Assembly (NCBI GenBank): GCA_026713825.1 | Contig: JAPONS010000069.1 | Coordinates: 26,082 to 90,081, forward strand | Reading direction: 5' to 3' | Source of the DNA: Chloroflexota bacterium | Lineage (GTDB): Bacteria; Chloroflexota; Dehalococcoidia; Lucifugimonadales; UBA1127 | Length of the DNA: 64,000 nucleotides | Part shown: positions 1,794 through 62,867 of the stretch, piece by piece | Position numbering within the stretch: the stretch's first letter is position 1 | How the letters are laid out: the number at the start of each line of letters is the position of its first letter | Position numbers and translations under genes: made by a program | Notes under the pieces: model-generated | Database searches by the model: none | What the model was told of the DNA's origin: nothing | What the model saw: the letters and a program-made list of their open reading frames with translations, nothing else

Positions 1794-1832
1794 CAATCTA
1801 CGCGACATTCCAGTCAGAAGGGACTGTCAGAC

Positions 1833-8347: not shown

Positions 8348-8412
8348 GGGGAGGGCTCCTTGTCCCGCCCTCACGCGGGCAGCTACAATGGAGTCACCCA
8401 CTCCACCCCTGG

Positions 8413-19738: not shown

Positions 19739-20182
19739 AGCTTGGTCCCCTGATGTGTGCTCTATGTAAAGTATAGCACTTGTCCAGTCCCTCTCCCAAG
19801 AGTCGGCTACAGCAAGCCTGTGAGATGACCTCATCAGGTTGTCTTTGGAGCAGATGGACTGACCGAGAGGGTGGATCACATGCATCTTCGCAGACTCGCC
19901 GGGTTACTCACTAGTAGCGCACGGGCATGCCGCCATGCTGCTTGCCCTAGGTCTGGCTGCAGAGTCGCTTCGGGTGCGGTCAAGACAAGTTGATGATCAC
20001 AGAACAGCATTGATGATGCACAAACGCGTTTGGCGTGTATAGGTGAGTGACAAAGGCTGGAGGGAGCGAGGGCTCTGGTGTCTCCTCTGCTCCTGCGATT
20101 CTGACCTGGCGTTGATGTGCAGTGGGGCCGCAATGGCGGTGAGCCGGGCACGGTACGAGGGAGTTTCCGCCGCAAGGGGTGT

Positions 20183-20351: not shown

Positions 20352-21203
20352 TTAGATCCGGCTGAAGCCGCTGCCGGGTCGCTCGGCACCCCAGCCGGCG
20401 CCCTGCTCTATCACCCCGTACTCCAGGAGGAGCTTCTGGCTGTAGGTGACCGTGCCGTTGACCTTCTCCGGCGGTTCCGTAGCCAGCAGCAGCGTAGCCC
20501 GGGCCATCCACTCCGGCGGCTCCCCGTTCTCGTCTCCAATGTAGCGTGCGCCGCGGTGGAAGACCGCGCCGGCCGTGGAGACGAAGATGGAGGGAGCAAG
20601 GGAGGTCACGGCGATGTTGTCATCTTTGACCTCCTCCGCAAGCCCTTGGGTGAACCGCTCGAGGGCGGCCTTGGCGGCGCCGTAGCCGGCGAAACCAGGC
20701 AGGTTTACGGACTGCTGAGGGTACGGAGCGCTTCCCGGTCCGACGGCCGAGCCTGAGGAAATATTGACGATAGCGCCGCTCTTGCGCGGGACCATGTCCG
20801 CCAGCACGGCCTGGCTGAGGACGAAGGGCGCATGCACCATGATCTGAAAGCTGCGGAGCCATCTGCTGTATGGGAATTTGTGGACGTGCTGGAGGACCGC
20901 AAGGGCCGCATTGTTTACGAGGACATCGACGGGGCCGTAAATGCGGCGGGCCTCGTCCACCACGCGGCGGCACTCGGCAGGGTCCGTGAGGTCGGCGGGC
21001 AGCGCGGTGGCCTCGCCGCCCGCCTGGCGGATGGCTGAGACAGTGCTCTCCAGCGAACCCGGAAACGGGTGGCTGCCCTCGGTCAGGGTCCGGGCCACGC
21101 AGAGGATGCGGCCGCCCTCGGCGGCGACGCATTTGGCGATGGCTTCACCGATGCCCCTGCTGGCGCCGGTGACGATGACGCTCTTTCCGTCCAACTTGCC
21201 CAC
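20352..21203 (-). CDS. short-chain dehydrogenase/reductase (SDR), paralog 1
   Basis: Motifs KLDGKSVIVTGASRGIGEAIA (TGxxxGIG), NNAA and YGAAK (YxxxK). The only in-frame start after the upstream stop is GTG 21203, preceded by GGAGG-N6. Confidence 0.85.
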   Translation of the reverse strand: MGKLDGKSVIVTGASRGIGEAIAKCVAAEGGRILCVARTLTEGSHPFPGSLESTVSAIRQAGGEATALPADLTDPAECRRVVDEARRIYGPVDVLVNNAALAVLQHVHKFPYSRWLRSFQIMVHAPFVLSQAVLADMVPRKSGAIVNISSGSAVGPGSAPYPQQSVNLPGFAGYGAAKAALERFTQGLAEEVKDDNIAVTSLAPSIFVSTAGAVFHRGARYIGDENGEPPEWMARATLLLATEPPEKVNGTVTYSQKLLLEYGVIEQGAGWGAERPGSGFSRI

Positions 21204-21253
21204 GATGTGCCTCCACGCAGAAGCGCCGCCCGTCGCGTGTCGAGCGGCGCGGG

Positions 21254-22156
21254 CTAGATCTGGCTGTAGCCGCTGCCGGGGCGGTCTACGCCCATACCTA
21301 CGCCCTTTTCTATGACGCCGTGCTCCAGGAGGATCTTCTGGCTGTAGGTGACCATGCCGTTCATCTTCCCGGCGGGCTTCGTGGCGAGGAGGAGGACGGA
21401 TTGGGCCATCAACTCCGGCGGCTCGCCGTTCTCGTCGCCGATGTAGCGGACGCCCTTGTGGAAGACCGCGCCGGCGGTGGGGACGATGATGGAGGGGGAG
21501 AGGGCCGATACGGCGATGTTGTCGTCGCGGACTTCGAGGGCGAGGCCCTGGGTGAAGCGTTCGAGGGCGGCCTTGGCGGCGCCGTAGCCGGTGACGGCGG
21601 GCGCGTCGGGGGAAGGCGGCGCGTAGGGTGCGCTGCCCGGGCCCCTGGCGGCGCTGGAGGAAATGTTGACGATGGCGCCGCGCTTGCGGGGAACCATGTC
21701 CTCCAGCACGCACTGGCTCAGGACGAAGGATGCGTGGACGATGATCTGGAAGCTGCGGAGCCAACTGTCATAGGGGAACTCCGCAACGGGAAGGAAGACG
21801 GCGAGGGCGGCGTTGTTGACGAGGACGTCGACGGGGCCGTAGATGCGGCGGGCCTCATCGACGACGCGGCGGCACTCGTCGGGGTCGGCGAGGTCGGCGG
21901 CCAACGCAGTGGCCTCGCCGCCGGCCTCGCGGATGGCGGCGACGGTGCCCTCGAGGGAGCCGGGAAATGGGGTTTCCGCCTCGCCGGGTCGGCCCTGGTC
22001 ACGCATGTAGGTGGTCATGTCGTGACTGCCCTCGCTGAGGGTGCGGGCCACGCAGAGGATGCGGCCGCCCTCGGCGGCGAGGGTCTTGGCGATGGCCTCA
22101 CCGATGCCTCGGCTGGCGCCGGTGACGATGACGCACTGTCCGTCCAACTTGCCCAC
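21254..22156 (-). CDS. short-chain dehydrogenase/reductase (SDR), paralog 2
   Basis: Same motifs as paralog 1. GTG 22156 after GGAGG-N6 mirrors paralog 1. The ORF track allows an ATG at 22204. Carries an extra about 19-aa insert (HDMTTYMRDQGRPGEAETP). Confidence 0.85.
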   Translation of the reverse strand: MGKLDGQCVIVTGASRGIGEAIAKTLAAEGGRILCVARTLSEGSHDMTTYMRDQGRPGEAETPFPGSLEGTVAAIREAGGEATALAADLADPDECRRVVDEARRIYGPVDVLVNNAALAVFLPVAEFPYDSWLRSFQIIVHASFVLSQCVLEDMVPRKRGAIVNISSSAARGPGSAPYAPPSPDAPAVTGYGAAKAALERFTQGLALEVRDDNIAVSALSPSIIVPTAGAVFHKGVRYIGDENGEPPELMAQSVLLLATKPAGKMNGMVTYSQKILLEHGVIEKGVGMGVDRPGSGYSQI

Positions 22157-22268
22157 GATGTTCCTCCACACGAAATTGCCGCGCCTTTGAGACGGCGCGG
22201 CCATGGGTTGCGGTTTGGCTCACCGGGAAGCTACATGACGGGGTGCGGCGCGTCAAGGGACGGGGGAG

Positions 22269-25859: not shown

Positions 25860-25893
25860 GGGGCGCGTCAACGGCTTCGCGGGGAGCGGCTCG

Positions 25894-26041
25894 CCATGTG
25901 CAACGCAGCGTTGCGTATGGCGGCGGGGCACCTCCATGTTAAACGCAGCGTTTAATATGGAGCGGGTTCGGGGTCTATATTAAACGCAGCGTTGTGTATG
26001 GGGGCGTTTTGCCTCTATACTAAACGCAGAGTTTAATACTG
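25894..26041. repeat. array of four 27-bp near-palindromes with a 40-41-bp period (operator- or iteron-like)
   Basis: The units are at 25894-25920, 25934-25960, 25975-26001 and 26015-26041. The consensus is CYATRT-TAAACGC-A-GCGTTTA-RTATGG. The centres are at 25907, 25947, 25988 and 26028. Confidence 0.9.
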
Positions 26042-26068
26042 GCGGCGCCACTCGCCGCAACCGGATGC

Positions 26069-32885: not shown

Positions 32886-34460
32886 CTACTCCTCACATAC
32901 GACGCCATCGCCGTCTCCGTCGCGGGCGCCGGGCACGAGCTCCGCCGGGAACCCCCTGCCGGGGCCGCTCGACCCCTGCAGGCGCGGCTCACCGGCAGCC
33001 TCCGCGTCGTCGCAGGAAGCATAGGTGCCATCGCTGCCGGGCGCAACGGTGGGCGTTGGGTCAGGCGAGCCGGAGGACGACGCGGGGCGTCGCGCCTCGC
33101 ACACGACGCCGTCACCGTCGCCGTCACGGGCGCCGGGCACGATCTCCGCGGGGAAGCCCCATCCCTCGCCGATGCTGCCCTGCACGCGCTCCTCCCCCGC
33201 GGCCTCGGCCTCATCGCACGAGGCGTATGTGCGGGCGGTGGAGGGCGCTGGGGTGGCCGCGGCTGTTGGCGACGGGCTGGTGGCCGCAGTTGATGTTGCG
33301 GTGGGAGCCGGGGTGGACGCCGCGGGCGTCGGGGTGGCGGTGGCGTCGGCGGGCGCAGGGGCTGACTGAGGGGTGGCAGTCGCTGGAGCGTCCACCTCGC
33401 ACACGATGCCGTCACCGTCGCCATCGCGGGCGGAGGGTACGCTTGCGGCGGAGAAGCCCACCCCGGGGCCAATGTAGCCCTGCACGCGCTCCTCTCCCGC
33501 GGCGGCGGCCTGGTCGCAGGTCGTGTATACCCTGACCGGCGCAGGCGTTGCGGAGGGCACGAACGTGGACGTCGCGGTGGGCAACGGCATGGCCGTGGGT
33601 TGCGCGCTCGCGGCCAGCACGACCTCGCACACGACGCCGTCACCGTCGCCGTCGCGGTTGTTGGGCAACAGGGACGCGGGGAAGCCCCATCCCTCGCCCA
33701 CCCCGCCCTTCACGCGCGGCTCCCCGGCAGCGGCGGCCTCGTCACAGGAGGCGTACGCGCGAATAGGCTGGGGCGCGGCGGGCTGGGCTACGAGCGCCTC
33801 GCCGGCGGCCTCGAATTCAACGACGCCATCGCACGTCTTCAGCATATCCTGCAGGGCGATGGTCTCGGCATGGGTTGCCGTCAGGCCCCACGTCTGCTTT
33901 ACCCCCGCCCAAGACGAGGCGTACTCACACCAGTACGCCTCGTCCGGCGGCCGCCACTCCTCCGGGCCTTTCGCGCCCTTCTCGCGGTTGACCAAGGCGG
34001 TGACGGCGATGAGGTGCGCGTCATCGCCGAGGCTGTTGGCGAACTGCCTCTTGCGCTCCGCTGACCACGCCCAGCCGCCGGAGCGGTGCGCATTGGCAAG
34101 GGGCACCAGGTGGTCGATGTCCAGATCGCGGGGGTCCGTGTAGGTGGCGCCGGTGTACGGGTCCAGCCATCGGCCGGCCTCAACGCTGCACCGGCGGTCA
34201 TCGCGGTAGGTCACCCGATCCCTGCTCTCCGCGACGAGCACCTCCTGCCGCGTGTCCTGGCAATCGCCATCGTCGTCAACCCAATGGGGCCACTCGTCCC
34301 GGTCGTAGGGCGGCAGGTCGTCCGGCGGCTCCGCGATGGTGAGGGAGAGGTCGACGGGGATGGGCGTCGCGGGGGATGGCGCGACGCTGTCAAGGAGGTC
34401 GCCGCACGCTGCCGCAGAGAGCAGCAGGGCAACGAGGAGGACGCGACGTGCAAGGGTCAT
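32886..34460 (-). CDS. secreted lipoprotein: DUF1524/HNH-type nuclease domain plus four excalibur calcium-binding repeats
   Basis: Lipobox LLSAAAC. DIDHLVPLANAHRSGG...NREKGAKGP is the GmrSD C-terminal type HNH pattern. Four copies of YASCDEAxAAGE...RDGDGDGVVCE. Confidence 0.75.
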   Translation of the reverse strand: MTLARRVLLVALLLSAAACGDLLDSVAPSPATPIPVDLSLTIAEPPDDLPPYDRDEWPHWVDDDGDCQDTRQEVLVAESRDRVTYRDDRRCSVEAGRWLDPYTGATYTDPRDLDIDHLVPLANAHRSGGWAWSAERKRQFANSLGDDAHLIAVTALVNREKGAKGPEEWRPPDEAYWCEYASSWAGVKQTWGLTATHAETIALQDMLKTCDGVVEFEAAGEALVAQPAAPQPIRAYASCDEAAAAGEPRVKGGVGEGWGFPASLLPNNRDGDGDGVVCEVVLAASAQPTAMPLPTATSTFVPSATPAPVRVYTTCDQAAAAGEERVQGYIGPGVGFSAASVPSARDGDGDGIVCEVDAPATATPQSAPAPADATATPTPAASTPAPTATSTAATSPSPTAAATPAPSTARTYASCDEAEAAGEERVQGSIGEGWGFPAEIVPGARDGDGDGVVCEARRPASSSGSPDPTPTVAPGSDGTYASCDDAEAAGEPRLQGSSGPGRGFPAELVPGARDGDGDGVVCEE

Positions 34461-34555
34461 GCAGTCGATTATACGGACGTAAAGGCGCGAAAACGCAGCG
34501 CAAAGGCCCTGCATTGCGAGCCCTTTGGCCATTCACCCGGGTGACGGCGCAGCCG

Positions 34556-36418: not shown

Positions 36419-36922
36419 CTACCCTTCTTTGAGCGCGATTCCGACCCAGAACTCCATTATCGATAAGTCAGAGGTGTCTGAAGAATAACGATGGTCATAG
36501 CGTTCGAGTTCAATCCCGCTCCAACGGTAGCCTGAATTCGGCAACCAATTTCGAAATGCATAGTCGAGGGTCATCCCCAGGTTACCGATTGGGCCCCTGT
36601 GCTCGAACACTGCGTAATCACACGCCGGGAGGTCGTAACGCACCATGCCGTCCGGCAGCGAACCAACCTCTGAGACCGCCACCCCAGCGACGTAGCGAAT
36701 CTCGTCAGTTTTGCCGTTCCCACCACCTGCCGGCGGGACGATAACCCCATACATGCTTGCATCCGCTCTGTTCGGCACCTCGTCGCAGCGGGTATGGAAA
36801 CGGTCCCATAGCGGTGGTATGACCTCAAAGTTGTTGGCCTTGGCTGACTCAATTCCGAAGAATGCAGCATCCAGACCAACAACGGTGAAGGCGTCCAATT
36901 GGCGGATTTCCGGTGTTTCCAT
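36419..36922 (-). CDS. GyrI-like small-molecule-binding domain protein
   Basis: Two-repeat beta-alpha-beta-beta pattern: FTVVGL..., YGVIVP..., YAVFEHRGP..., ELERYD. GC is lower than in the neighbours. Confidence 0.6.
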   Translation of the reverse strand: METPEIRQLDAFTVVGLDAAFFGIESAKANNFEVIPPLWDRFHTRCDEVPNRADASMYGVIVPPAGGGNGKTDEIRYVAGVAVSEVGSLPDGMVRYDLPACDYAVFEHRGPIGNLGMTLDYAFRNWLPNSGYRWSGIELERYDHRYSSDTSDLSIMEFWVGIALKEG

Positions 36923-43067: not shown

Positions 43068-43970
43068 ATGGACGTGGGATTCATCGGCCTTGGAGCGATG
43101 GGGCGGCACATGGCGCGGCACCTGCAGACGGCAGGCCACACCATGATCGTGCACGACATCCGGCGCGAGGCGGCGACGCCCTACCTGGAAGCCGGCGCGA
43201 ACTGGGGCGAAACACCAAGAGAGGTGGCGCAGGCGGCAGAGGTGGTGTTCACGTCGCTGCCGGGGCCGGCGGACGTCGAGTCCGTGGCCGTGGGAACGGA
43301 CGGCATCATCGCGGGGTCGTCGAGCGGGCAGGTGTACGTCGACCTCTCCACCAACTCGCCCGTCCTGACGCGGCGGCTGCACGCCGAGTTCGCCGAGAAG
43401 GGCGTCCGGATGCTGGACTGCCCGGTGAGCGGCGGCACGGTGGGCGCGGAGGCGGCGACGCTCGCGCTCCTCGTCGGCGGCGACAAGGACCTGTACGAGG
43501 AGCTGCTGCCGGTGCTGCAGTGCATCGGCGACAAGCCCTTCTACTGCGGGCCCGCCGGCGCGGGGCAGGTGTGCAAGCTCGTCAACAACTACATCTCGCT
43601 CTCGGTGCAACCGCTGCTGGCCGAGGCCTTTTCCATCGGCGTGAAGGCGGGCGTGGACGCGGGCACGCTGTACGAGGCCATCGTCCGGAGCACGGGCAAC
43701 ACGCAGACGATGCAGCGCCGCTACCCGACCGGGCTCCTCAAGGGCAATTTTGCGCCCGGGTTCACGGTGAACCTGGGCCGCAAGGACCTGACGCTGGGGC
43801 TGCAGCTCGCCGAGGATTTTGGGGTTCCGGTGCAGTTTGGGCCGATAGCGCTCGGCGAGTACGCGGCGTCGGCGGAGCGCGACCGCGGGCTGCTGGACAC
43901 CGGCTCCGTCGCGCTGATGCAGGAGGAGCGCGCGGGCGTCGAGATCCGCGCGGACATCAAGCCGCGGTAG
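43068..43970 (+). CDS. NAD(P)-dependent oxidoreductase, 3-hydroxyisobutyrate dehydrogenase family, paralog 1
   Basis: MDVGFIGLGAMGRHMA Rossmann motif, DCPVSGG and KLVNN. Confidence 0.85.
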   Translation: MDVGFIGLGAMGRHMARHLQTAGHTMIVHDIRREAATPYLEAGANWGETPREVAQAAEVVFTSLPGPADVESVAVGTDGIIAGSSSGQVYVDLSTNSPVLTRRLHAEFAEKGVRMLDCPVSGGTVGAEAATLALLVGGDKDLYEELLPVLQCIGDKPFYCGPAGAGQVCKLVNNYISLSVQPLLAEAFSIGVKAGVDAGTLYEAIVRSTGNTQTMQRRYPTGLLKGNFAPGFTVNLGRKDLTLGLQLAEDFGVPVQFGPIALGEYAASAERDRGLLDTGSVALMQEERAGVEIRADIKPR

Positions 43971-43998
43971 CCCCCGAGAAAACCATAGGGAGAACAAC

Positions 43999-44901
43999 GT
44001 GGACGTAGGATTCATCGGCCTTGGCGCGATGGGACGGCACATGACCCGGCACCTGCAGGCGGCGGGGCACAATATGACCGTGCACGACATTCGCCGGGAG
44101 GCGGCCACGCCCTTCCTGGAGGCCGGGGCGAACTGGGGCGACACGCCGCAGCAGGTGGCGCAGGCGTCGGAGGTGGTGTTCACCTCGCTGCCGGGGCCGG
44201 TGGAGGTCGAGGCGGTGGCGCTGGGGCCGGAGGGCATCGCGGCCGGGGCGTCGAACGGGCAGGTGTACGTCGACCTCTCGACGAACTCGCCCGTCCTGAC
44301 GCGGCGGCTTCACGCCGATCTGGCGGCCAAGGGCATCCGCATGCTCGACTGCCCGGTCAGCGGCGGCACCATCGGCGCCGAGGAAGCCACGCTCGCGCTG
44401 CTGGTCGGCGGCGACAATGCGCTGTACAAGGATCTGCTGCCGGTGCTGCGGTGCATCGGCGACAAGCCCTTCTACTGCGGGCCCGCGGGCGCCGGGCAGG
44501 TGTGCAAGCTGGTCAACAACTACATCACGCTCTCGCTGCAGCCGCTGCTGGCCGAGGCCTTCTCCATCGGCGTGAAGGCCGGCGTGGACGCGGGCACGCT
44601 TTTCGAGGCCGTGAGCCGCAGCACGGGCAACACCCGGTCCATGCAGTGGAGGTATCCACCCGCCCTGCTCAAGGGCAACTTCGCACCCACGTTCACGGTT
44701 GACCTTGTCCGCAAGGACCTGGGTCTGGCGATCGAGCTGGCGGAGCAGTTCGGCGTGCCGCTGCAGCTCGGCCCGCTGGCGTACAAGGAGTACGACGACA
44801 TGTCGAAGAGCGGCCGCGGGAATCTCGACACGAGCTCCGTTGCGCTGCTGCAGGAGGAGCGCGCCGGCGTCGAGATCCGCGCCGACGTGGAGCCCCACTA
44901 A
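43999..44901 (+). CDS. NAD(P)-dependent oxidoreductase, 3-hydroxyisobutyrate dehydrogenase family, paralog 2
   Basis: Same length (300 aa) as paralog 1 and collinear with it, with no indels. Most positions are identical by eye. Confidence 0.85.
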   Translation: MDVGFIGLGAMGRHMTRHLQAAGHNMTVHDIRREAATPFLEAGANWGDTPQQVAQASEVVFTSLPGPVEVEAVALGPEGIAAGASNGQVYVDLSTNSPVLTRRLHADLAAKGIRMLDCPVSGGTIGAEEATLALLVGGDNALYKDLLPVLRCIGDKPFYCGPAGAGQVCKLVNNYITLSLQPLLAEAFSIGVKAGVDAGTLFEAVSRSTGNTRSMQWRYPPALLKGNFAPTFTVDLVRKDLGLAIELAEQFGVPLQLGPLAYKEYDDMSKSGRGNLDTSSVALLQEERAGVEIRADVEPH

Positions 44902-46033: not shown

Positions 46034-46627
46034 GTGGGCGCGGAAGACGTCACCATCACGGAGGGTCTCGCGGCCGAGCACGTCGAGGACGCGCTGCGGA
46101 TACTGTTCGGGGCCTTCGCGAAGAAGCTGCACATCGGGTTCCGCGACGCCGACGACTTCGTCCGGCTGTTCCGCGACGGCGTCAACCCGGCGGCCTGCCT
46201 CTCGGCCACCGCGTCCGGCGAGTTGCTCGGCATCCTGGGGCTCCAATCGCCCGGCGGGGAGCTCTACGATTTCCGGCCCAAGTCCCTGTTCCTGCGCTTC
46301 TCGCCGTGGCGAGCCGTCCTCATCCTCGCCAACATGCTCGTCCTGTACTCGCCGCCGCGGAAGGACGCGCTGGTCGTTGACCAGCTTGCCGTTGCGCCGT
46401 CAGCACGCGGCAGGGGCATCGGCACGCTGCTGCTGGAGGCGGCGGAGACGAGGGGGCGCGCGATGGGGATGCCAAAGATGGCCCTCAGCGTAATCTCGGA
46501 GAACGAGGGCGCCATCCGCCTGTACGAGCGCATGGGGTACGTGCGGACGCAGGCAATCGGAGGCACGCTGGTGCGCATGGTGGCCAGGTCGGCGGAGGTG
46601 TGGCACATGGAGAAGGAGCTGGGGTGA
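46034..46627 (+). CDS. GNAT family N-acetyltransferase
   Basis: QLAVAPSARGRGIGTLLL acetyl-CoA motif and C-terminal NEGAIRLYERMGY. Confidence 0.8.
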   Translation: MGAEDVTITEGLAAEHVEDALRILFGAFAKKLHIGFRDADDFVRLFRDGVNPAACLSATASGELLGILGLQSPGGELYDFRPKSLFLRFSPWRAVLILANMLVLYSPPRKDALVVDQLAVAPSARGRGIGTLLLEAAETRGRAMGMPKMALSVISENEGAIRLYERMGYVRTQAIGGTLVRMVARSAEVWHMEKELG

Positions 46628-46654
46628 TGCCAACCCTGACCGTCATCCGCCGTG
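46627..46654 (+). repeat. distal copy of the comF 5' end (ATG plus 8 codons), left boundary of cassette
   Basis: ATGCCAACCCTGACCGTCATCCGCCGTG here versus ATGCCAACCCTGACCGCCATCCGCCGCG at 47591-47618 (26 of 28 identical). Its ATG overlaps the GNAT TGA stop. Confidence 0.9.
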
Positions 46655-46765
46655 AAGGTGCTGTGCGCTTGATTGGCCGATGAATTACAGTTCGACGGTA
46701 TGATATACTTGCCGTAAACAAGCTGTGAATTGGCCCTTGATGGCTCACCCAACCGGAGGGAATTT

Positions 46766-47011
46766 GTGAGTGAGGCGCTCCAAGAGGAATTCCAGAACTA
46801 CCTCGCCTACCAGGCTGATTTCGTGGCTAAGTACGACGGACGCTTCATCGCGCTGAAAGATGGCGTGGTGCTTGGCGACTACGATAGCGCGGGCGAGGCG
46901 ATGCTTGACCTACGTGACACCCACCCAATTGGCACATACCTCATCCAGAGAGTGTCCCCGGGCGACAAGGACACGAAAGTTTCAATCTATTCTCCTGTGG
47001 TGGCCCCATAG
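46766..47011 (+). CDS. small hypothetical protein (DUF5678-like pattern, tentative)
   Basis: YDGRFIALKDGVVLGDYDSAGEAM resembles short proteins of the G-x-(W/F)-(V/I)-A-x-x-D-G-x-V type. GTG 46766 after GGAGGG; the ORF track start is 46730. Confidence 0.4.
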   Translation: MSEALQEEFQNYLAYQADFVAKYDGRFIALKDGVVLGDYDSAGEAMLDLRDTHPIGTYLIQRVSPGDKDTKVSIYSPVVAP

Positions 47012-47040
47012 CAACGCGACAGGGTCCCCTCAGCTTCACC

Positions 47041-47499
47041 GTGGAAGGCGATGACCTTCTTAACGTCTTGACGACGCAATGCGGCGTCTCTGCGTACACT
47101 CCTAGCTTGTACACGACCCCGTCTGCAATGCCCGACTTCACCGCCCTCTGGGATACCGGAGCCACCATCTGCATGGTGTCTCAAGCGATCGTCGACGCCT
47201 GCGGATTGGTGGAGGTTGGGGCTACAGACGTCAGCCATGCAATGGGCACATCCCAGCAAGTTGCGCTCTACTACATCAGCCTTCGTTTGCCCAGTGGCGC
47301 CGTGATCGATGAGGTCCGGGCCATCAAGGGCATCTTGCCGGAGGACCTGCATATGGTCATTGGCATGAATGTCATAAACGAGGGTGACTTTGTCATCACC
47401 AATCGGAACGGAAGGACTAAGTTTTCCTTTCGCGTGCCCTCGCAAGCCGACATAGACTTTGTGACAGAGGATGCAGCTACAGGCGGTACGCCAACCTAA
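47041..47499 (+). CDS. retropepsin-like (clan AA) aspartic protease
   Basis: ALWDTGATICMVS contains the D-T-G-A catalytic motif. The later VIGMNVINEGDFVI matches the retropepsin flap/dimer pattern. 152 aa. Confidence 0.6.
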   Translation: MEGDDLLNVLTTQCGVSAYTPSLYTTPSAMPDFTALWDTGATICMVSQAIVDACGLVEVGATDVSHAMGTSQQVALYYISLRLPSGAVIDEVRAIKGILPEDLHMVIGMNVINEGDFVITNRNGRTKFSFRVPSQADIDFVTEDAATGGTPT

Positions 47500-47590
47500 A
47501 GAAGATGTTACCCAGCATTGTGAGCCTGTCGGATTCTATGAGTTCTATCTCGCTGGATTCGGCCTCTCCAATGCTACAATTCCTCCCACC

Positions 47591-47618
47591 ATGCCAACCC
47601 TGACCGCCATCCGCCGCG
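47591..47618 (+). repeat. proximal copy of the comF 5' end (functional start of comF)
   Basis: See the feature at 46627-46654. Preceded by the extended -10-like TGCTACAAT. Confidence 0.9.
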
Positions 47619-51693: not shown

Positions 51694-52854
51694 CTAGTCC
51701 TGACCGGACGCTTCGCCTTCATCGGGCGCGTCCTCATGCAGGACGGGCGCCCCCGCCGCGTCCAGCAGCGGCGCATCGGCCTGCGACGCGGCATTCCACT
51801 GGCGGCAGAAGTAGACGATGAGATCGCGGCCCAGGGCGGTCAGCGGCGGGCCGAGGATGACGCCCCACAGCCCGAAGAAGTGGCTGCCGATGGTGATCAC
51901 AAGGATGACGGCGATGGGGTGCAGGTTCAGCGTCTCGGCCTGGATGCGCGGCACCAGCAGGGTGTTTTCCAGGAGCTGGACAGCCAAGTAGAGCAGGATG
52001 ACCCAGACGACCTTGTCCGGCTCCGTCGCGAGGGTCACGAGGACGCCGACTCCGCCGCCAATCCACGGGCCGATGATGGGCACCAGCTCGGTGAGGCCCG
52101 CGACGACGCCCAGCACCACGGCAAACGGGACGTCCAGCGCCAGCAGCCCAATGGTCACGATGGCCCCAACCACCACGCCGAGGGTGAGCTGCCCCCGGAT
52201 GTAGCCGCCCAGCGTGCGGTCCGCCATGTCGATCAGGTCGCGCAGGTAGGGGTGCATGGAGGCGGGAAAGGGGGCGCGCAAGGACTGCACAATGACCCCG
52301 CCGTCCTTCATCAGGTAGAAGACCAGCACGGGGGCGGTCGCCAGTGCAAGGATGAAGGCAAAGGAGCCGGTGATGATGCCCAGGGTCTGCTCGACCACGC
52401 TCCAGGCAGCGCTGCCGACGATGTCCCCCACATTCGCCAGCGCCTCCTCGATCTGGTCCCGCGCATCCTGGGAGATGACGTCAACGTATTCTTCGACCCA
52501 TCCCTCGATCGTCACGCGGGCGCCCTGGAGGAACTCGGGGAAGCCCTCGGCGAACTGCCGCCCCTGGTCGACTGTCGGGGGGATGACGGCGAGGAAGACA
52601 CTCACGAGGACCGCCAGGGCCGCGAGGAAGATGATCCCGACGGCGGAGGTCCGCGCGAGGCCCGGGCGGCCGTGCCGCCAGGGCAGCCGCCGCTCGATGA
52701 ACCGGGCCACCGGCAGCAGCACGTAGGCGATGACGATGCTGATGCCCAGCGGCAGCAGCACCGACCCCAGCACGTACACCAACGCCAGCGCCAGCAGCAG
52801 CACGGCGGCAAACGCCGCCAGGTGCGCGCGTTCCCGTGACAGGTGAAATGGCAT
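51694..52854 (-). CDS. AI-2E family transporter (PerM/UPF0118)
   Basis: From the internal Met MPFHLS. Eight hydrophobic segments and an ELVPIIGPWIGG motif. Confidence 0.85.
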   Translation of the reverse strand: MPFHLSRERAHLAAFAAVLLLALALVYVLGSVLLPLGISIVIAYVLLPVARFIERRLPWRHGRPGLARTSAVGIIFLAALAVLVSVFLAVIPPTVDQGRQFAEGFPEFLQGARVTIEGWVEEYVDVISQDARDQIEEALANVGDIVGSAAWSVVEQTLGIITGSFAFILALATAPVLVFYLMKDGGVIVQSLRAPFPASMHPYLRDLIDMADRTLGGYIRGQLTLGVVVGAIVTIGLLALDVPFAVVLGVVAGLTELVPIIGPWIGGGVGVLVTLATEPDKVVWVILLYLAVQLLENTLLVPRIQAETLNLHPIAVILVITIGSHFFGLWGVILGPPLTALGRDLIVYFCRQWNAASQADAPLLDAAGAPVLHEDAPDEGEASGQD

Positions 52855-52948
52855 GGCTGGCTCCCTATCCTCGCATCGTTGGGGTTCGGGCAGGCACAGG
52901 GTACCCGATTGCAGGGGCGTTGTGGTGAGGGTAGGCTGGAGTCGCGTT
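52839..52948. repeat. direct repeat copy A: first 5 codons plus about 95 bp upstream of the AI-2E transporter gene
   Basis: ACAGGTGAAATGGCATGGCTGGCTCCCTATCCTCGCATCGTTGGGGTTCGGGCAGGCACAGGGTACCCGATTGCAGGGGCGTTGTGGTGAGGG aligns with 53970-54072. Confidence 0.85.
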
Positions 52949-53129
52949 GCATTGTACGCCGAGGGCGCGACAGGTCCAGAGACTCTCACGAGGGGTTTTG
53001 CGGTTGTCACGCGGACCTGCTCTCAATGCAATCGGAGACCGCCGAGGTTTCTTGCGTTATAATCACTAACTCACTACAATATTCCTGACGCCCCCTTTCC
53101 AGAGCAACCCGAGACGAAGGAGACGCGAC

Positions 53130-53534
53130 ATGGTCGTAGACCGCCAGGACAAGTATCGAGCAATGGTGGTCCGGGGCAAGTACCAGAGGCTGTACACGTA
53201 CCTGAGCAGTCTTCAGGCCCAGGAGTGGAGGACCTCCTTCAACGAGGTCGAGGCGGTCATCGGATTCGAGCTGCCTCCGTCCGCACGGCTGCACCGGCCC
53301 TGGTGGGGAAATCAGAGGGGCGGCAGCGGCCACAGCCACGCCCTCGCCTGGAGCGTCGCCGGATGGGAGGCGGCGGAGGTGGATATGGAAGCCGAGACGC
53401 TGCTGTTCCGGCGAACGGATCCCAAGCCGGTACCCAGGCTTCCCCTTGACGAAGCATGGCCCGTCCATCCCACCGCGGTGTGGCCGGAAAGCTTGAGTCT
53501 CAGGAGAGAGGACCTCTACGAGGGGAGGGGTTAG
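53130..53534 (+). CDS. putative non-canonical antitoxin partner of VapC
   Basis: The motif FNEVEAVIGFELPPSARLHRPWWGN...AGWEAAEVDMEAETLLFRR recurs in small proteins from mobile contexts. The C-terminal tail is SLSLRREDLYEGRG. The gene ends 7 nt before the PIN gene. Confidence 0.45.
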   Translation: MVVDRQDKYRAMVVRGKYQRLYTYLSSLQAQEWRTSFNEVEAVIGFELPPSARLHRPWWGNQRGGSGHSHALAWSVAGWEAAEVDMEAETLLFRRTDPKPVPRLPLDEAWPVHPTAVWPESLSLRREDLYEGRG

Positions 53535-53541
53535 GCCAGCC

Positions 53542-53964
53542 ATGTTCATAGACACCAACGTGCTGGTAAAGTCTCGTGTCCCCGGCGCGCCGGACCACAA
53601 CGCGGCCAGGGCGAGCCTGGAACGCGCTTTTCGAGACCCTGAACCGCTCAGGATCAGTCGCCAGGTGATACGCGAGTACCTGTCGGTGGTCACGCGCCCG
53701 CAGACGTGGCCGGTGGCTATCACTCGCGAGGAAGCTCTCGACGACGTGAGCAGGCTGATTGGCAGCTTCGAGATACTTGAAGACGGCCCCGTGGTGACCG
53801 AGCTGCTGGTGGCCCTGTGCCGAGAGGTTCCCGCAGGGGGGCAGCAGATTCACGACGCCAACATCGTTGCGACCATGCTCGCGCGTGGAGAGCGCAGGCT
53901 CCTCACGTTCAACACAGCAGACTTTCGGCGTTACGGAGACCGCATAGAGTTGGTGGGAGGCTAG
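53542..53964 (+). CDS. vapC: PIN-domain toxin (VapC family)
   Basis: MFIDTNVLV, REYLSV, IHDANIVATM and LLTFNTADF. All four acidic/PIN signature positions are recognisable. Confidence 0.8.
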   Translation: MFIDTNVLVKSRVPGAPDHNAARASLERAFRDPEPLRISRQVIREYLSVVTRPQTWPVAITREEALDDVSRLIGSFEILEDGPVVTELLVALCREVPAGGQQIHDANIVATMLARGERRLLTFNTADFRRYGDRIELVGG

Positions 53965-53969
53965 CGAGC

Positions 53970-54072
53970 ACAGGTTGAATGGCATCGCTCCCTATCCTCG
54001 CATGGTTGCCGTTCGGGCAGGGGACAGAGTACCCGTTTGCGGGGGCATTGTGGTGGGGGGCCTGAGCGCTTG
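53970..54072. repeat. direct repeat copy B (diverged pseudo-5' end of the AI-2E transporter gene)
   Basis: ACAGGTTGAATGGCATCGCTCCCTATCCTCGCATGGTTGCCGTTCGGGCAGGGGACAGAGTACCCGTTTGCGGGGGCATTGTGGTGGGGGG. On the minus strand it begins ATGCCATTCAACCTG (MPFNL), against MPFHL in the real gene. Confidence 0.85.
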
Positions 54073-54322
54073 ACAACGATCTGTGGTCTGGCTACTTTCT
54101 GGCAGGATTGAAGCCGATAACGGGCGCTTGACACAGGCGGAGAAGGCAAAGACGCTACCACATGCCCCTTTTGTGACACACCCGTTGTCTGCGTGTGCGT
54201 AACGCCACAGCAGGCTGCACCTGCCTAAGTCACGTAACGCTCAGGCAGTCAGCACTATCGGACTGGCACAGGCAACTAGAGAGACTGAATGCCGCTGGGC
54301 ATCCCAGTCCGACGCCCCTTCA

Positions 54323-54697
54323 TTGGGGCGTTTCAGGGGAAGGAGATGGTCTTTGGCAGAAGAACTCTGGCGCACTGACAACCCTTGCACAGGCACACAG
54401 AGTTATTTGCACGACACAAACTGGGGTTCCCACACACGGAAGAGGCCGGAGATCAGAGGTCGTTTGCGGGAGGTCCAAGAAACCGTAAAGGACCCGGATT
54501 TTGCGCTCCGTGACGAGCAGGGAGTAGTATTCAAGTACCGAATGGGCTTCGGACAAGGCAAGCTGGCAAGGCTCTGGCTTCTCGTCATTGAGGAAGCGGA
54601 CCAGCGAGGAGCCCACTACGTCAAGAGCGCCTACTTCACGTCCGACATAAGGGACTACGAGGCCCTCTGCATTAGAAGGATACCGGCGATTGGGTGA
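54323..54697 (+). CDS. hypothetical small protein, possible toxin partner of the downstream DUF2283-like gene (start uncertain)
   Basis: The C-terminal half ...VQETVKDPDFALRDEQGVVFKYRMG...RLWLLVIEEADQRGAHYVKSAYFT fits the pattern of small RelE-fold or DUF4258-like toxins. Overlaps the next gene by 8 nt. Confidence 0.3.
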   Translation: MGRFRGRRWSLAEELWRTDNPCTGTQSYLHDTNWGSHTRKRPEIRGRLREVQETVKDPDFALRDEQGVVFKYRMGFGQGKLARLWLLVIEEADQRGAHYVKSAYFTSDIRDYEALCIRRIPAIG

Positions 54698-55130
54698 CGA
54701 CATGAGCATGGAGCATGCGTTTGACAGGCTGAAGAAGTCTGCAAAGGACGACGCGGAGGCATTGGCCGCCCGCTTCCTGCAAGTGAATGCGGACATGACG
54801 GGCATGATCGAGCGCGCGGGCATCCTCATCGAGTATGAGCGCGAGCGTGACCACCTCTACATGACACTGGGCGAGCCGCGTGAGGGAATGGCGCTCACCG
54901 TGGGCCATCTGGTTGTCCTTGCTGACCCGGAGACGTTGGAGTTCATCGGCTTTGAGATCCCCGACTTCAAGAAGGCAGTCGAGACCGATGCCCTCAAGGA
55001 GTGGGCGCGCATCTTGCCCTTCATCGAATGGCAGCCAGTCGTGCACATTCCGCCCGCAGCACACAACGACGAGGTGACATTTCCTCGGGAAATCGCCGAG
55101 GGAGTACAGCGAGAGTTGGTCCACGTCTAG
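54690..55130 (+). CDS. DUF2283-like protein (possible antitoxin)
   Basis: IEYERERDHLYMTLGEPREGMALTVGHLVVLADPETLEFIGFEI matches the DUF2283 pattern YD.e.D.LYI.l...e...v..D....ivGiEI. Confidence 0.4.
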   Translation: MGDDMSMEHAFDRLKKSAKDDAEALAARFLQVNADMTGMIERAGILIEYERERDHLYMTLGEPREGMALTVGHLVVLADPETLEFIGFEIPDFKKAVETDALKEWARILPFIEWQPVVHIPPAAHNDEVTFPREIAEGVQRELVHV

Positions 55131-55202
55131 TCGCCACATCCCCCACCCCCGTTGACACACCCCTCCCCTCGCGGTACGCTTGACCCCTAACAACTGCATA
55201 CG

Positions 55203-55297
55203 CCCCGGGGGGAGCTTGGATAGGCCAGGCTGAGAGGTCCCGTTTGCTTGGGACGACCCCGAGAACCTGATCTGGGTAATGCCAGCGTAGGGACGTG
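55203..55297 (+). ncRNA. TPP (THI-box) riboswitch aptamer
   Basis: GGGGGAGC...CTGAGA...ACCCCGAGAACCTGATCTGGGTAATGCCAGCGTAGGGA matches the conserved THI element core. Confidence 0.85.
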
Positions 55298-55317
55298 GCC
55301 CTTCTGCTTACGTTTTA

Positions 55318-55343
55318 ACCGCCCGGACAGGGCGGTTCTTTTT
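55318..55343 (+). terminator. intrinsic terminator (riboswitch expression platform)
   Basis: Hairpin ACCGCCC-GGACA-GGGCGGT followed by TCTTTTT. Confidence 0.7.
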
Positions 55344-55386
55344 GTTTTCCGGGCTCTTCGCCCGGAGGACGCCGGGGCGGAGGGAG

Positions 55387-56544
55387 ATGGCAATGGCAAG
55401 GAATCTGGCGCTCCTGACCCTGGCGCTGCTGCTGGTCCTCGCGATGGCGGCGTGCGGCGATGACGACGCCGGCACGCCGACGGAACCCACCAGGCCGGTG
55501 TCCCAGCCCGCGCCGACGGCTGCGCCCGCACCCACCGCGGCGCCCGCGCCGACGCCCATCCCGCCGGACGCGAACAACGAGCTCGTCATCATGAGCCATG
55601 ACAGCTTCAACATCGGCGAGGACGTCATCGCGGCCTTCGAGGCGGCGAACGACGCCACCGTCGTGCTGCTGCCCGCCGGCGACACGGGCCTCGCGCTGAA
55701 CCGCGCCATCCTGGAGAAGGGCAACCCCTCGGCGGACCTCTTCTACGGCGTCGACAACACCTACCTCGGCCGCGCGCTCGCCGAGGGCATCTTCGTGCCC
55801 TACGAGTCGCCCGGCCTCGCCAACGTGCCGGAGCAGTTCATCATGGACCCATCCTTCCACGTCACGCCCATCGACTACGGCTACGTCAACCTGAACTACG
55901 ACAAGGCGTTCCTCGAGGCCGAGGGACTGCAGCCGCCCTCAAGCCTGGAGGAGCTGACCGAGTCGCAGTGGAAGGGCAGTCTGGTCGTCGAGAACCCCGC
56001 GACCTCGTCGCCCGGGCTCGCCTTCCTCATCGCGACGGTGTCGTACTTCGGCGAGGACGACGACTACGACTACCTCGACTACTGGGCGGACCTGCGCGCC
56101 AACGATGTGGCGATTACCGACGGCTGGAGCGACGCCTACTACACCAACTTCACCAAGTACGGCGGGGACCAGCCGCTGGTGGTGAGCTACGCCACCAGCC
56201 CGGCGGCGGAGTTCTTCTTCTCAGAGACGCCGCTGGATGACGCGCCCACGGGGAACATCCTGCTCGACCGCTCCGTGTTCCTCCAGATCGAGGGCATGGG
56301 CGTGCTGCTGGGCGCCGACAGCCCCAACCTTGCCCGCAAGTTCATCGACTTTGCGCTGGACTTGCAGTTCCAGGAGGATTTCCCGGACAAGATGTTCGTG
56401 TACCCTGTGAACCGGAACGCGACGCTGCCGGACTTCTGGCGCTTCGCGGAGGAGCCGGCGGTGCCCGCGGACATCGGCCCGGCCGAGATCGGCGAGAAGC
56501 GGGAAGCGTGGATAGAGGCGTGGACGCAAGTCATGCTGCGGTAG
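55387..56544 (+). CDS. thiB: thiamine ABC transporter substrate-binding lipoprotein
   Basis: Lipobox LAMAAC. ELVIMSHDSFNIGEDVIAAFEAAN...LNRAILEKGNPSADLFYGVDN parallels E. coli TbpA. Lies downstream of the TPP riboswitch. Confidence 0.8.
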   Translation: MAMARNLALLTLALLLVLAMAACGDDDAGTPTEPTRPVSQPAPTAAPAPTAAPAPTPIPPDANNELVIMSHDSFNIGEDVIAAFEAANDATVVLLPAGDTGLALNRAILEKGNPSADLFYGVDNTYLGRALAEGIFVPYESPGLANVPEQFIMDPSFHVTPIDYGYVNLNYDKAFLEAEGLQPPSSLEELTESQWKGSLVVENPATSSPGLAFLIATVSYFGEDDDYDYLDYWADLRANDVAITDGWSDAYYTNFTKYGGDQPLVVSYATSPAAEFFFSETPLDDAPTGNILLDRSVFLQIEGMGVLLGADSPNLARKFIDFALDLQFQEDFPDKMFVYPVNRNATLPDFWRFAEEPAVPADIGPAEIGEKREAWIEAWTQVMLR

Positions 56545-60499: not shown

Positions 60500-61462
60500 T
60501 TACGTACTCGAAACACTAATCCTTGAAGAGGTAATCCTGATAGTGTAATGAAACACTTCGTTCAAAAACTCTTCCCACTTGGGTCCGTTCCCGGACAGGT
60601 CATCAAGCATGAAGGTCTTGTTGACCTTCAATTCGGCCAAGCGTCTCTCCATCTCCGCTGTGACTATCCCCGCAACCAACATATTGACGCAGTTGGTGGG
60701 AGTAGCCTCAAAGCTCTTTTGCACCGCGCCGAGCCGTTCCAAGGCCCCGGCAGGATCCTTGCCGCCCTTGATCTCGATGGTAGCTACCACCACGGGTTGC
60801 CCGTTGACCAACTGCCGAAACTCAATGTCCGGCTCTGAGCCATAGCGCATTGCATAGTTATCCGGCAGTTGAAACTGGGTTCCCTCAGCGTTACTGCCCA
60901 ATATGAGTTTCTCCGTCTCCAACCACTCCTTGATGCGCCGCTTGACCAACTGCTCGGCGTCTTGCCCGATGAGGTTGCGGATAGTGCCGTCGAGTCCAAT
61001 CCCCATGTTCGCGAGGATGTTCCGGTACCCATTCTCAAGCGTCCAGCCGGTCGAGCCTTCAATAATGGAAGAGATCACAGCGTTGTACAGGCGGGCAACC
61101 TTCATTGCCCTTTCAGCGTTGACCTTTGCCTTGATTTTTCGGTTGGGGTCTTCCCAGGTCGTCACGTTTGCGGCTAATGGCGCGACCCGTTTTTGCGACA
61201 AGAGCGCGATGCCACGGTAATACTCAGACAAGCGCGGGTGTTCAATGAGCAAATCTGGGTGGGCGAACACGGACTTAGGATCAAAGCTGGACGCCGCAAC
61301 GTGAGCCCAAGCGGCCCGACTGATCATCAGGTCATCCAAGCGGGAAAAGTCCAGCGGAGCGGCGAACGTGCCTATCAACTCTCTCAGTTGTATATCACTC
61401 CGCTGTTTGATTCTCTCAGCCATGACGGCAGAGCGCCGCACCGCATCATCCAGGTTAGTCAT
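60500..61462 (-). CDS. candidate type II restriction endonuclease (PD-(D/E)xK motif)
   Basis: YGSEPDIEF-x17-ATIEIKGGKDPAGALERLGA gives PD...EIK spacing typical of PD-(D/E)xK nucleases. 8-nt overlap with the methyltransferase gene. Low GC. Confidence 0.55.
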   Translation of the reverse strand: MTNLDDAVRRSAVMAERIKQRSDIQLRELIGTFAAPLDFSRLDDLMISRAAWAHVAASSFDPKSVFAHPDLLIEHPRLSEYYRGIALLSQKRVAPLAANVTTWEDPNRKIKAKVNAERAMKVARLYNAVISSIIEGSTGWTLENGYRNILANMGIGLDGTIRNLIGQDAEQLVKRRIKEWLETEKLILGSNAEGTQFQLPDNYAMRYGSEPDIEFRQLVNGQPVVVATIEIKGGKDPAGALERLGAVQKSFEATPTNCVNMLVAGIVTAEMERRLAELKVNKTFMLDDLSGNGPKWEEFLNEVFHYTIRITSSRISVSST

Positions 61463-62867
61463 TGTCCCTCACCCACCAGTACACACACTTCCGCAACTCT
61501 CGTCTTCCGAAACGGCCCATCTGTTGACTCGAGTTCCCTTTGCCGCGGGGCAACACCCAAATCTGCTTGCAAGTAAAGCCGCATTGTTCAGCGTAGTCCG
61601 ACAAGATAAGGTCGACCGGCACCTCTTCCCCGTGGTACTGGACATTGTCATTGACCATGACCACGGTGCCGCCCGGCTTGACGACCCGCCCCAATTCCGC
61701 CACAACAAGGGCCATCTCCAAGAAGTATCCTTCCAGCAGTCGGATGACGTGTGCGTTGCTTAGCTCTCGGACGCAACCCCTGAGTGTCGCGAGCACTTCC
61801 TGCAACGCTCCTTCATTCTCAAACATATTGATGGCATGTCCGAGTAAGTCAGAGGGACCATAAGCACTCTCTAGCCAAGACCTCTTGGATTTATTCTCCA
61901 CCGTGGCAGACAACATCCTCTGCCGCAGTGCGCTGAAGTCCTCATGTGTAAATCCAAGCCACGCTAGTTCTAGGGCATAGGTCCGGGTGTAGTCATAGCG
62001 GTTGGCGTACGGCGGCGACGTGATGACCATGTCGAAGGAACCTTCCGGCAGTGTGGGAAGAAACTCAAGGCAGGAGCCGGAAAGCAATCGCGGCGTTCCC
62101 TTGCCGTATTCCGCCTTCAAGCTTTGAAGGTCGTCCAGCATTTGGCCCAATCGGGATTCCAGGGCCGATTGGAATGGCAAGATCGCTCCCTTGTTCACGT
62201 GGGCGCGCAATGCGCGCCCGGACCGGAAGTCCCAACGCAGATACTGCCCGTCCTTGCGGGTGTAGCTGACATCCTCCAAAACGCTCATGCACGCGAGGTT
62301 CAAGAGAGTTCGCATACCCCAATCGTCCACCGAACCCACGAACCGGCGTGCTTTGGCCAGCAGCGGCTCCGTCTCCTTGGGGAACGCTGACTCGGTGATG
62401 GGGACGTGACGAAAGCCGTATTCACCCGGCGCATCGTCACCGTGTTCCACGTGTGCAATGAGCGCCTTGGCCATGCGCGCGAACGCATCGGGGTCCAGCC
62501 CATTGGCGGCGTAGGCGATACCCCGCGCGACCTCTATTCCCAGCGGGAGGATCTCTATGCCGGTGCCCGCCCGCCCTTGCCCCGCCGCGACCAAGGGGGC
62601 GGTGCCTATGCCCGCGAAGGGGTCCAGCACGGCCTCCGGCCGGAACTCTCCAATGAGGTCACCCACCAGCTTCCTGGAGAAGCCTTCCTTATACTTCAAC
62701 CACCGGAAGCCGGGCGTCTGCCGGTTCCCCTGATACGAGACCACCTTGCGCGCGAGGGAAGGGTCAACGGTGAGCCGGTCCTGAAAGCGGCGGTGCAGCG
62801 CACGGCGCTCATTCGCACTGCCGCCGTTGGGAGACTCTATCGAAACCGCTTCTAGAACCGAGGTCAT
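61455..62867 (-). CDS. DNA methyltransferase (N6-adenine or N4-cytosine; motif I before motif IV)
   Basis: Motif I is LDPFAGIGTAP, at about residue 83. Motif IV is ITSPPYANRYDY, at about residue 285. Low GC. Confidence 0.85.
   Translation of the reverse strand: MTSVLEAVSIESPNGGSANERRALHRRFQDRLTVDPSLARKVVSYQGNRQTPGFRWLKYKEGFSRKLVGDLIGEFRPEAVLDPFAGIGTAPLVAAGQGRAGTGIEILPLGIEVARGIAYAANGLDPDAFARMAKALIAHVEHGDDAPGEYGFRHVPITESAFPKETEPLLAKARRFVGSVDDWGMRTLLNLACMSVLEDVSYTRKDGQYLRWDFRSGRALRAHVNKGAILPFQSALESRLGQMLDDLQSLKAEYGKGTPRLLSGSCLEFLPTLPEGSFDMVITSPPYANRYDYTRTYALELAWLGFTHEDFSALRQRMLSATVENKSKRSWLESAYGPSDLLGHAINMFENEGALQEVLATLRGCVRELSNAHVIRLLEGYFLEMALVVAELGRVVKPGGTVVMVNDNVQYHGEEVPVDLILSDYAEQCGFTCKQIWVLPRGKGNSSQQMGRFGRRELRKCVYWWVRDND

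Follow-up and report, generated by a model that had tools for sequence, protein, structure and literature searches.

In a 64-kb stretch of contig JAPONS010000069.1 (the window), from the genome of an uncultured Dehalococcoidia-type (Chloroflexota) host, a predicted toxin-antitoxin (TA) cassette lies in the spacer between an AI-2E family transporter gene and what is probably a thiamine-transporter operon (the thiB side). We consider it probable that the cassette was inserted into this promoter spacer with a duplication of about 100 nucleotides (nt) of its target. One copy of the target (copy A) serves the AI-2E gene and the other (copy B) is decaying on the far side of the insert. The event is shared by several lineages and is hence old. 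To our knowledge, the movement of chromosomal TA pairs without a recombinase is still poorly explained, and this locus documents one case well: there are empty sites, a relative in which the occupied site is intact, and a spare copy seen in three different states of decay.

Direct repeats around a predicted toxin-antitoxin cassette

We performed a self-BLAST of the window and recovered copies A and B as a pair in direct orientation, offset by 1131 nt (52839-52931 versus 53970-54059; 81.9% identity over 94 nt, E = 4.2e-18). Just these two copies of the target sequence, T, were found in the 64 kb. The self-alignment thus showed significant similarity between the two intervals, in line with a preliminary description of this DNA, which had claimed a diverged direct repeat of the AI-2E promoter region and first five codons. 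A repeat search divided the pair into three collinear blocks of 85-91% identity, and a global alignment gave 89 identical positions out of 105 (84.8%), with 17 nt as the longest unbroken identity (GCTCCCTATCCTCGCAT). Besides substitutions, the copies are separated by one 4-nt and one 1-nt indel, whose net effect is the 3-nt indel described previously. The common segment stops 16 nt into the AI-2E coding sequence (ATGCCATT.NACCTGT). Within the limits listed in Table 1, copy A measures 103 nt and copy B 97 nt. The presence of the repeat was therefore described correctly, while its length had been put at 105-110 nt and is about 100 nt: an extension to 54072-54078 was rejected, as the 12 nt that follow copy B are the −35 region of a second module's own promoter (module 2; TTGACA at 54070-75) and are homologous to locus L088 (related loci are given by L numbers).

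Short GC-rich matches are common in a genome as GC-rich as this one (67%), and a chance similarity, or a motif common to promoters, could in principle pass for a duplication. However, the match has an E value of 4e-18 and only two copies in 64 kb, it spans a start codon and five codons, and both copies align to one orthologous region in relatives. We regard the probability of a chance match as negligible.

Copy A is the working copy, serving the transporter gene. The MPFHL start within it, on the minus strand, had been taken as the true start of that gene, and this agrees with the position of the ATG (52854..52852) and with the strong Pfam match of the protein (Table 1). Two blocks in copy A are spaced like −35 and −10 elements (ACCACA at 52926..52921, 17 nt, TACCCT at 52903..52898). 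These blocks are kept in 11 orthologous upstream regions, and they are the putative AI-2E promoter. Copy B retains both (ACCACA at 54054..54049, 17 nt, TACTCT at 54031..54026). It begins 6 nt past the stop codon of the PIN-domain gene, and, as stated in the preliminary description, its own start on the minus strand reads MPFNL and runs antisense into vapC, through the 3′ end of the PIN gene. An Rfam scan of 52600-55500 matched only a thiamine pyrophosphate (TPP) riboswitch, with no RNA family on the repeat.

The antitoxin-like gene and vapC that had been reported on the plus strand between the copies were recovered as matches to PF24698 and PF01850. With a promoter/operator region they form a cassette of about 0.93 kb (about 53043 to 53964). 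The repeats do bracket this module, but it does not adjoin copy A directly: a spacer of about 99 nt, X, intervenes. X holds a minus-strand promoter-like site facing the AI-2E gene (TGGACC-16-TACAAT, 52978..52951). Together, X and the cassette make up a two-gene insert of about 1.03 kb. We asked if X might be a further piece of the duplicated target, taken from the thiB leader, and rejected this (Smith-Waterman score 14 versus a shuffle mean of 16).

The PIN/VapC protein is a predicted ribonuclease (RNase) toxin. It matches PF01850 above the cut-off, Mycobacterium tuberculosis VapC43 (7vwo) matches it with E = 2.2e-5, and acidic residues lie within the conserved stretches MFIDTN, REY, HDAN and NTADF; its score against TIGR00028 is 65.8 bits, below that model's cut-off of 73.6. 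For the protein encoded upstream, DUF7662 was the only Pfam match, and there was no match in NCBIfam or the PDB. At the left end of the cassette, which may act as a promoter/operator, the motif TCACTAACTCACTACAAT is kept in cassettes of six different contexts, and homology begins there. The operator-like motif TCACTAACTCACTA is a putative target of the DUF7662 protein. Overall, the DUF7662-PIN pair is predicted to be a compact type II TA cassette. It resembles VapBC-type modules of this class in its layout (an antitoxin-like gene followed, after an 8-nt gap, by a PIN toxin gene for about 140 amino acids (aa)), in having its own promoter and operator-like direct repeat, and in a patchy distribution over many unrelated contexts. 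In those related loci that were inspected, a homologous open reading frame (ORF) likewise stands immediately upstream of the PIN gene, and the C-terminal tail motif of the antitoxin recurs on a different antitoxin with another PIN partner in L032. In contrast to VapBC modules, the N-terminal domain is DUF7662 instead of that of a classical AbrB, RHH, Phd or HTH VapB, and the PIN protein falls under the NCBIfam VapC subfamily cut-off.

To place the cassette among its homologs, we scanned metagenomes with the PIN protein and obtained 80 loci, among them the window's own genome (L007). Cassettes occur in at least 10 other contexts (L008-L024, L084), where similarity to the window is limited to about 53063-53974, and homology between cassettes stops 0-11 nt past the PIN stop codon. 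In an all-against-all comparison, homology was restricted to the cassette in every pair from different contexts. No AI-2E sequence adjoins the cassette in these other contexts and they have no attachment-like (att-like) end in common, only the two genes and the operator. There is no transposase or other mobility gene in the insert, and the repeat search found no inverted repeat linking the cassette ends. The cassette is the mobile unit and the sole unit common to the contexts.

Table 1. Features of the AI-2E/thiB locus in the window (upper rows) and states of the same site in related genomes (lower rows)
Feature	Position or locus	Strand	Details
AI-2E family transporter gene, 386 aa	51694..52854	-	Pfam PF01594, E = 1.7e-56; first 16 nt inside copy A
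Copy A of target T	52839..52941	-	AI-2E codons 1-5 (+1 nt), 5′ untranslated region and upstream region; contiguous with the gene
Spacer X, ~99 nt	52942..53040		Insert-associated DNA between copy A and cassette
Cassette left end	53043..53083	+	Candidate promoter (TTGCGT 53043-48, 17 nt, TACAAT 53066-71) around operator-like motif TCACTAACTCACTACAAT
Antitoxin-like gene, 134 aa	53130..53534	+	DUF7662, Pfam PF24698, E = 1.9e-12; C-terminal tail WPESLSLRREDLYEGRG
PIN-domain (VapC-type) toxin gene, 140 aa	53542..53964	+	Pfam PF01850, E = 3.8e-10
Copy B of target T	53970..54066	-	Displaced pseudo-5′ end MPFNL and copy of upstream region
Module 2, two genes	54067..55143	+	Own promoter (TTGACA 54070-75, TACTTT 54093-98); between copy B and thiB promoter
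Thiamine-transporter promoter and riboswitch, native right flank	55152..55310	+	TTGACA 55152-57, TACGCT 55175-80
Empty site, single T	L004, L095		In L004, 99 nt between thiB leader and AI-2E ATG
A-X-cassette-B, without module 2	L087 (~97% nt identity)		Copy B 8 nt from native thiB −35 element
Cassette and X, copy B reduced	L089/L002		~30 nt of B nearest the PIN stop left, 23/31 identical to the window's B
X, DUF7662 gene, PIN gene fragment	L097		Fragment fused to distal ~23 nt of B
X, antitoxin gene, A at contig end	L099		Far side beyond contig
Module 2 without cassette	L088		Single T
LRR-like gene (745-764 aa) in spacer	L001, L093, L094, L096, L098		
Reverse-transcriptase gene in same spacer	L091, L092		

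Occupied, empty and decaying alleles in related genomes

We gathered AI-2E orthologs by a genome scan and exact-protein look-ups and found them, at 62-98% identity, in many Chloroflexota/Dehalococcoidia assemblies. Comparing their synteny revealed both occupied and empty alleles. The view that the module is an insertion is borne out by the single-copy empty sites of L004 and L095; copies A and B both match the single T of L095, at 72.7% (E = 4e-8) and 71.3% (E = 1.5e-6). X was found in L087, L097 and L099 and partly in L089/L002, and it is absent at the empty sites. The same X/A junction is seen in all cassette-bearing lineages of this locus (L087, L097, L099 and L089), where the AI-2E protein shares 68-98% identity with that of the window. 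Because this junction is common to them, and because proximal and distal remnants of copy B survive in different lineages, the duplication traces to one old insertion after which copy B was lost piecemeal. An old event was one of the two explanations first offered for the divergence of the copies, and it is the one that the junctions or remnants of both copies in these four loci uphold. The cassette of L097 (3420-4570) is itself decaying, and its DUF7662 gene is called as a 273-aa fusion product. In L089, a 9-nt repeat (ACACACAAC) was considered as the target duplication and rejected, as the far side better fits the remnant of copy B listed in Table 1.

Different deletions have truncated copy B: its distal end is lost in L087, about 70 nt including both promoter-like blocks in L089, and its proximal part in L097. 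Between the window and L087, copy B is 90.6% identical and copy A 97%, and fourfold-degenerate sites of the neighboring genes are 90-95% identical; copy B thus diverges faster than copy A, at a pace close to neutral. The antisense ORF beginning in copy B (53500-53985) has a base pattern unlike coding sequence of this genome and is interrupted in L089. This pattern marks copy B as a decaying relic, a pseudo-5′ end and not a gene. It agrees with the original description of a pseudo-5′ end beyond the module; in the relatives that retain it, copy B is truncated and not part of a conserved gene. A GGTACC palindrome that is intact in working copies and broken in copy B was rejected as proof of decay, since the working copies of L088, L091 and L095 vary at these positions too.

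Copy B might instead be kept for a function, for example as an antisense promoter across vapC that acts as a brake on the toxin or through transcriptional interference. In the window it does retain both blocks at the 17-nt spacing, facing the vapC 3′ end. We find this very improbable: both cassette genes are intact in L089, where both blocks are gone, and in L087, where the distal end is gone; the loss of the proximal part in L097 and the near-neutral divergence also speak against a function.

The AI-2E/thiB spacer is an insertion hot spot, as its relatives carry varied inserts there, including an LRR-like gene, a reverse-transcriptase gene and module 2 (Table 1). The LRR-like gene lies at 3560-5854 in L001, 2555-4843 in L093 and 1618-3855 in L098, and the reverse-transcriptase (RVT_1) gene of L091, also present in L092, encodes 508 aa (1615-3141). 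Within L094 (4785-5030) and L096 (3870-4115), the AI-2E upstream region and first ~8 codons have been swapped for the unrelated ATGCGGCAACTTTTCGTGGGACAT, after which homology resumes; the replaced stretch adjoins a 749-aa LRR-like gene. The breakpoints of the hot spot therefore extend a few codons into the transporter gene.

Next, we built a neighbor-joining tree with bootstrap from about 95 columns of the AI-2E upstream regions (T), including copies A and B. The two A copies grouped together (89% bootstrap), as did the two B copies (94%), with longer branches for B. Histories differ on the two sides of the site. Between the window and L089, identity at fourfold-degenerate sites is 54% for AI-2E, 63.5% for MutL, 68% for the solute-binding protein, 76% for the permease and 69-78% for the cassette genes; between the window and L001, from which the cassette is absent, it is 78.6% for AI-2E and 69.8% for the solute-binding protein. 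The upstream region of L001 groups with those of L089 and L004 (100% bootstrap), though its gene is the closest to the window's, and X with the cassette is associated with four types of copy A. These differing histories indicate that homologous recombination has reshuffled alleles around the hot spot, which also explains why, in the window, copy A resembles copy B more than it does most orthologous copies, and vice versa. Gene conversion between the two was also considered for their closeness and is not needed, as in L089 the history of the AI-2E side goes back further than that of the cassette and of the thiB side; copy A of L089 was probably exchanged together with its gene.

The preliminary description had raised recombination with a donor allele already carrying the cassette. 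As a later process this is supported by the mosaic flanks and the T tree, but it does not explain the origin of the duplication. A stronger form would have the whole A-X-cassette-B block imported ready-made through its AI-2E and thiamine-operon flanks, with no insertion in this genome at all. The sharp differences in fourfold-site identity across the site (window versus L089 and versus L001), the grouping of the L001 upstream region, the four types of copy A and a distal copy B that differs unusually between the window and L087, beside module 2, are all points in its favor. However, the window holds no recent high-identity block around the cassette, and import is no rival regarding the first origin of the duplication, for which one illegitimate event would still be required. 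We consider ready-made import unlikely.

Insertion mode and comparison with known elements

The history that we favor, insertion with target duplication, may have run as follows. A compact TA cassette, acquired by horizontal transfer, would have entered the ~100-125-nt spacer between the back-to-back AI-2E and thiamine-operon promoters together with about 100 nt of co-travelling X. Illegitimate recombination by the host would join this DNA at two staggered points, one at AI-2E codon 5/6 and the other at the distal end of the promoter region, and the stretch between the joins would be duplicated, probably through two sister copies or gap filling. Copy A would remain on the transporter gene, while copy B would remain on the thiamine-operon side, where it is superfluous. 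Such an insertion could survive since neither of the flanking transcription units loses any of its control region and the TA pair resists loss. Survivors would be enriched for duplications, because an insertion without one, in a double-promoter spacer of ~100-125 nt, usually cripples one gene. Occupied and empty alleles would later be reshuffled among related lineages by homologous recombination, and the direct repeats would permit clean deletion.

Several points weigh against this account. The joining reaction is one that we infer, and the sequence would fit staggered illegitimate insertion and other routes alike; the repeats are just ~85% identical, so their identity at the time of insertion is not deducible. 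For X, neither the rest of the window nor the thiB leader offers a homolog from which to derive it. The clade joining the A and B copies has a bootstrap of only 56% on its ~95 columns, as seen when the two were placed in one phylogeny with orthologous upstream regions. The cassette is missing in L001, the closest AI-2E relative after L087, so that a single old insertion needs several losses or allele exchange. In a rough count, long flanking repeats were found at 2 of 42 non-redundant PIN loci versus 7 of 34 displaced control windows, a comparison in which the controls are inflated by paralogs and internal protein repeats.

Insertion accompanied by a long duplication of the target has been described for complexes of restriction-modification genes (Nobusato et al. 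2000, Gene 259:99, as cited in PMC2853133). We took the criteria for this class from Furuta, Abe & Kobayashi 2010 (NAR 38:2428; PMC2853133): a complete gene pair of less than 20 kb without other mobility genes, flanked by direct repeats of more than 30 bp that both align to a single-copy empty site (PMC2853133). The insert studied here, at ~1.03 kb, likewise comprises a complete gene pair with no mobility genes, and the same two genes stand alone in L087 and L089. Its repeats (103 and 97 nt) exceed 30 bp and are far longer than transposon duplications, and both align to one copy at the empty sites L004 and L095. In restriction-modification systems the repeats measure 30-420 bp, and they often cross translation starts while the target gene is left intact (PMC2853133); here, too, the repeat crosses a translation start, the target gene is intact, and the repeat differs in length from one event to the next (26, ~100, 106 and at least 119 nt, counting the candidate cases below). 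The differences are that the cargo is a PIN/DUF7662 pair and not a restriction-modification system, that the repeats are old and diverged (85%) with one copy visibly decaying, and that the host is an uncultured Chloroflexota lineage. In the literature searched, we found no report of TA pairs with this insertion mode, only restriction-modification papers and reviews citing them. The locus would thus extend that mode to a TA pair.

Duplications made by transposons and insertion sequences are 2-15 bp long, have a fixed length for each element, and are accompanied by terminal inverted repeats and a transposase. The present locus shares with them a target directly duplicated at both ends of an insert. 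In contrast, it has neither transposase nor inverted repeats, and its duplications, from 26 to more than 119 nt, are variable.

We found three further candidate cases. In the window, a 26-nt direct repeat with one mismatch (ATGCCAACCCTGACCG[T/C]CATCCGCCG) occurs at 46627 and 47591 (46627-47616) at the comF gene. It brackets a DUF5678-like gene (46730-47011, weak match) and a retropepsin-like aspartyl protease gene (47041-47499, sub-threshold match), and the GNAT gene upstream still has its stop codon overlapped by the comF pseudo-start. In relatives, L001, L003 and L087 have a single copy of the 26-mer, with other DNA between GNAT and comF. The other two candidates are on soil-type metagenome contigs. 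In L032 (841-1968), repeat copies with 83% identity over at least 119 nt, taken from the 5′ part of a Rossmann-type gene, surround a PIN cassette with a different antitoxin, and the pseudo-5′ end is still coupled to the upstream gene. In L079 (887-1880), another PIN cassette is surrounded by a 106-nt repeat of 92% identity, including an unbroken match of 82 nt; the ATG and ~11 codons within it may open a downstream gene that continues past the contig end.

Integrase-mediated integration into gene ends provides another comparison, as in elements bounded by attL/attR. There, too, repeats bracket the insert, one completing the gene and the other forming a displaced pseudo-end, and imperfect identity of the repeats is usual. 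The insert could accordingly be the remnant of a larger tyrosine-integrase element that targeted the AI-2E 5′ end, integrated by site-specific recombination with copy A as its own replacement promoter and 5′ end, displaced the native copy B and decayed to the loss-resistant TA pair and X. Arms that normally differ from the start would suit the diverged repeats, X would be a piece of otherwise unexplained insert-associated DNA, the far-side pseudo-5′ end recurs in the comF, L032 and L079 cases, and the 26-nt comF repeat is within the size range of att cores. Against this, neither the insert nor its surroundings contain an integrase or element gene in the window, L087, L089, L097 or L099, judging by precomputed Pfam matches, which some genes lack. 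The insert is only ~1.03 kb, and no attachment sequence travels with the cassette to its other contexts, which number at least 10 without a common att-like end. Copy B runs on into the native thiB promoter and copy A into the native gene, which is exactly what plain target duplication gives. Thus, we regard a decayed integrative element as quite unlikely.

A broader and more speculative possibility, which we hold to be unlikely as well, is a recombinase-free life cycle. Cassettes would enter by long target duplication, with a preference for sites that span promoters and translation starts, loop out as circles carrying one target copy, and re-enter orthologous sites by a single crossover. If true, this would account for the patchy occupied and empty alleles and for the diverged repeats, and what the cassettes have in common with restriction-modification systems would be the use of a DNA-repair pathway of the host instead of cutting by the cargo. 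For restriction-modification insertions, a common cause has been suggested in breakage of DNA by the inserted system (PMC2853133). Cutting of DNA by the cargo does not fit the present case because the toxin is a predicted RNase. Such a toxin points to a host repair or recombination pathway, with selection for insertions that preserve the neighboring genes. The locus further indicates that a back-to-back promoter spacer of ~100 nt can remain a hot spot for insertions over a long time, and that the breakpoints can reach a few codons into a gene. For annotation, this means that genes should not be called from pseudo-starts and antisense ORFs like MPFNL....

Module 2, the right flank and other features of the window

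Module 2 lies beyond copy B. Its two ORFs overlap (54323-54697 and 54690-55130), and Pfam gave no match for them even at E <= 1; by eye, they may resemble a DUF4258/DUF2283-like pair. A homolog of 78.6% identity occupies the same locus in L088. In L087, 54052-55143 is missing as a clean 1092-nt indel that covers all of module 2 and 15 nt of T-like sequence. This difference is probably a deletion in L087; otherwise, module 2 would have been imported into the window lineage from an L088-like allele.

To the right of module 2 is the native flank of the insertion site. The TPP riboswitch at 55198-55310 (Rfam RF00059, 73.1 bits, E = 7.9e-14) is followed by a terminator-like hairpin (55317-55337) and by a solute-binding protein gene at 55342-56544 (Pfam SBP_bac_6/8). 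Because this riboswitch and hairpin precede a solute-binding protein gene, the operon probably encodes a thiamine ABC transporter controlled by the riboswitch.

Elsewhere in the window, GC at third codon positions drops below that of the neighbors in several small genes or gene pairs (3955-4383, 8209-9088, 16513-16830, 19089-19885, 36419-36922 and 60500-62867). Their composition suggests further acquired modules; no flanking direct repeats were found around them at E <= 1e-3. The window also contains tandem paralogous genes at 43069-44894 and 20353-22182 (82.7% over 896 nt and 76% over 929 nt) and a 165-nt unit repeated four times (32891-33787) within the gene at 32886-34532. Finally, the intergenic stretch at 25879-26058, upstream of the gene at 26069, carries two 56-nt direct repeats (25902-25957 and 25983-26038, 80% identity) and forms a weak 182-nt palindrome.

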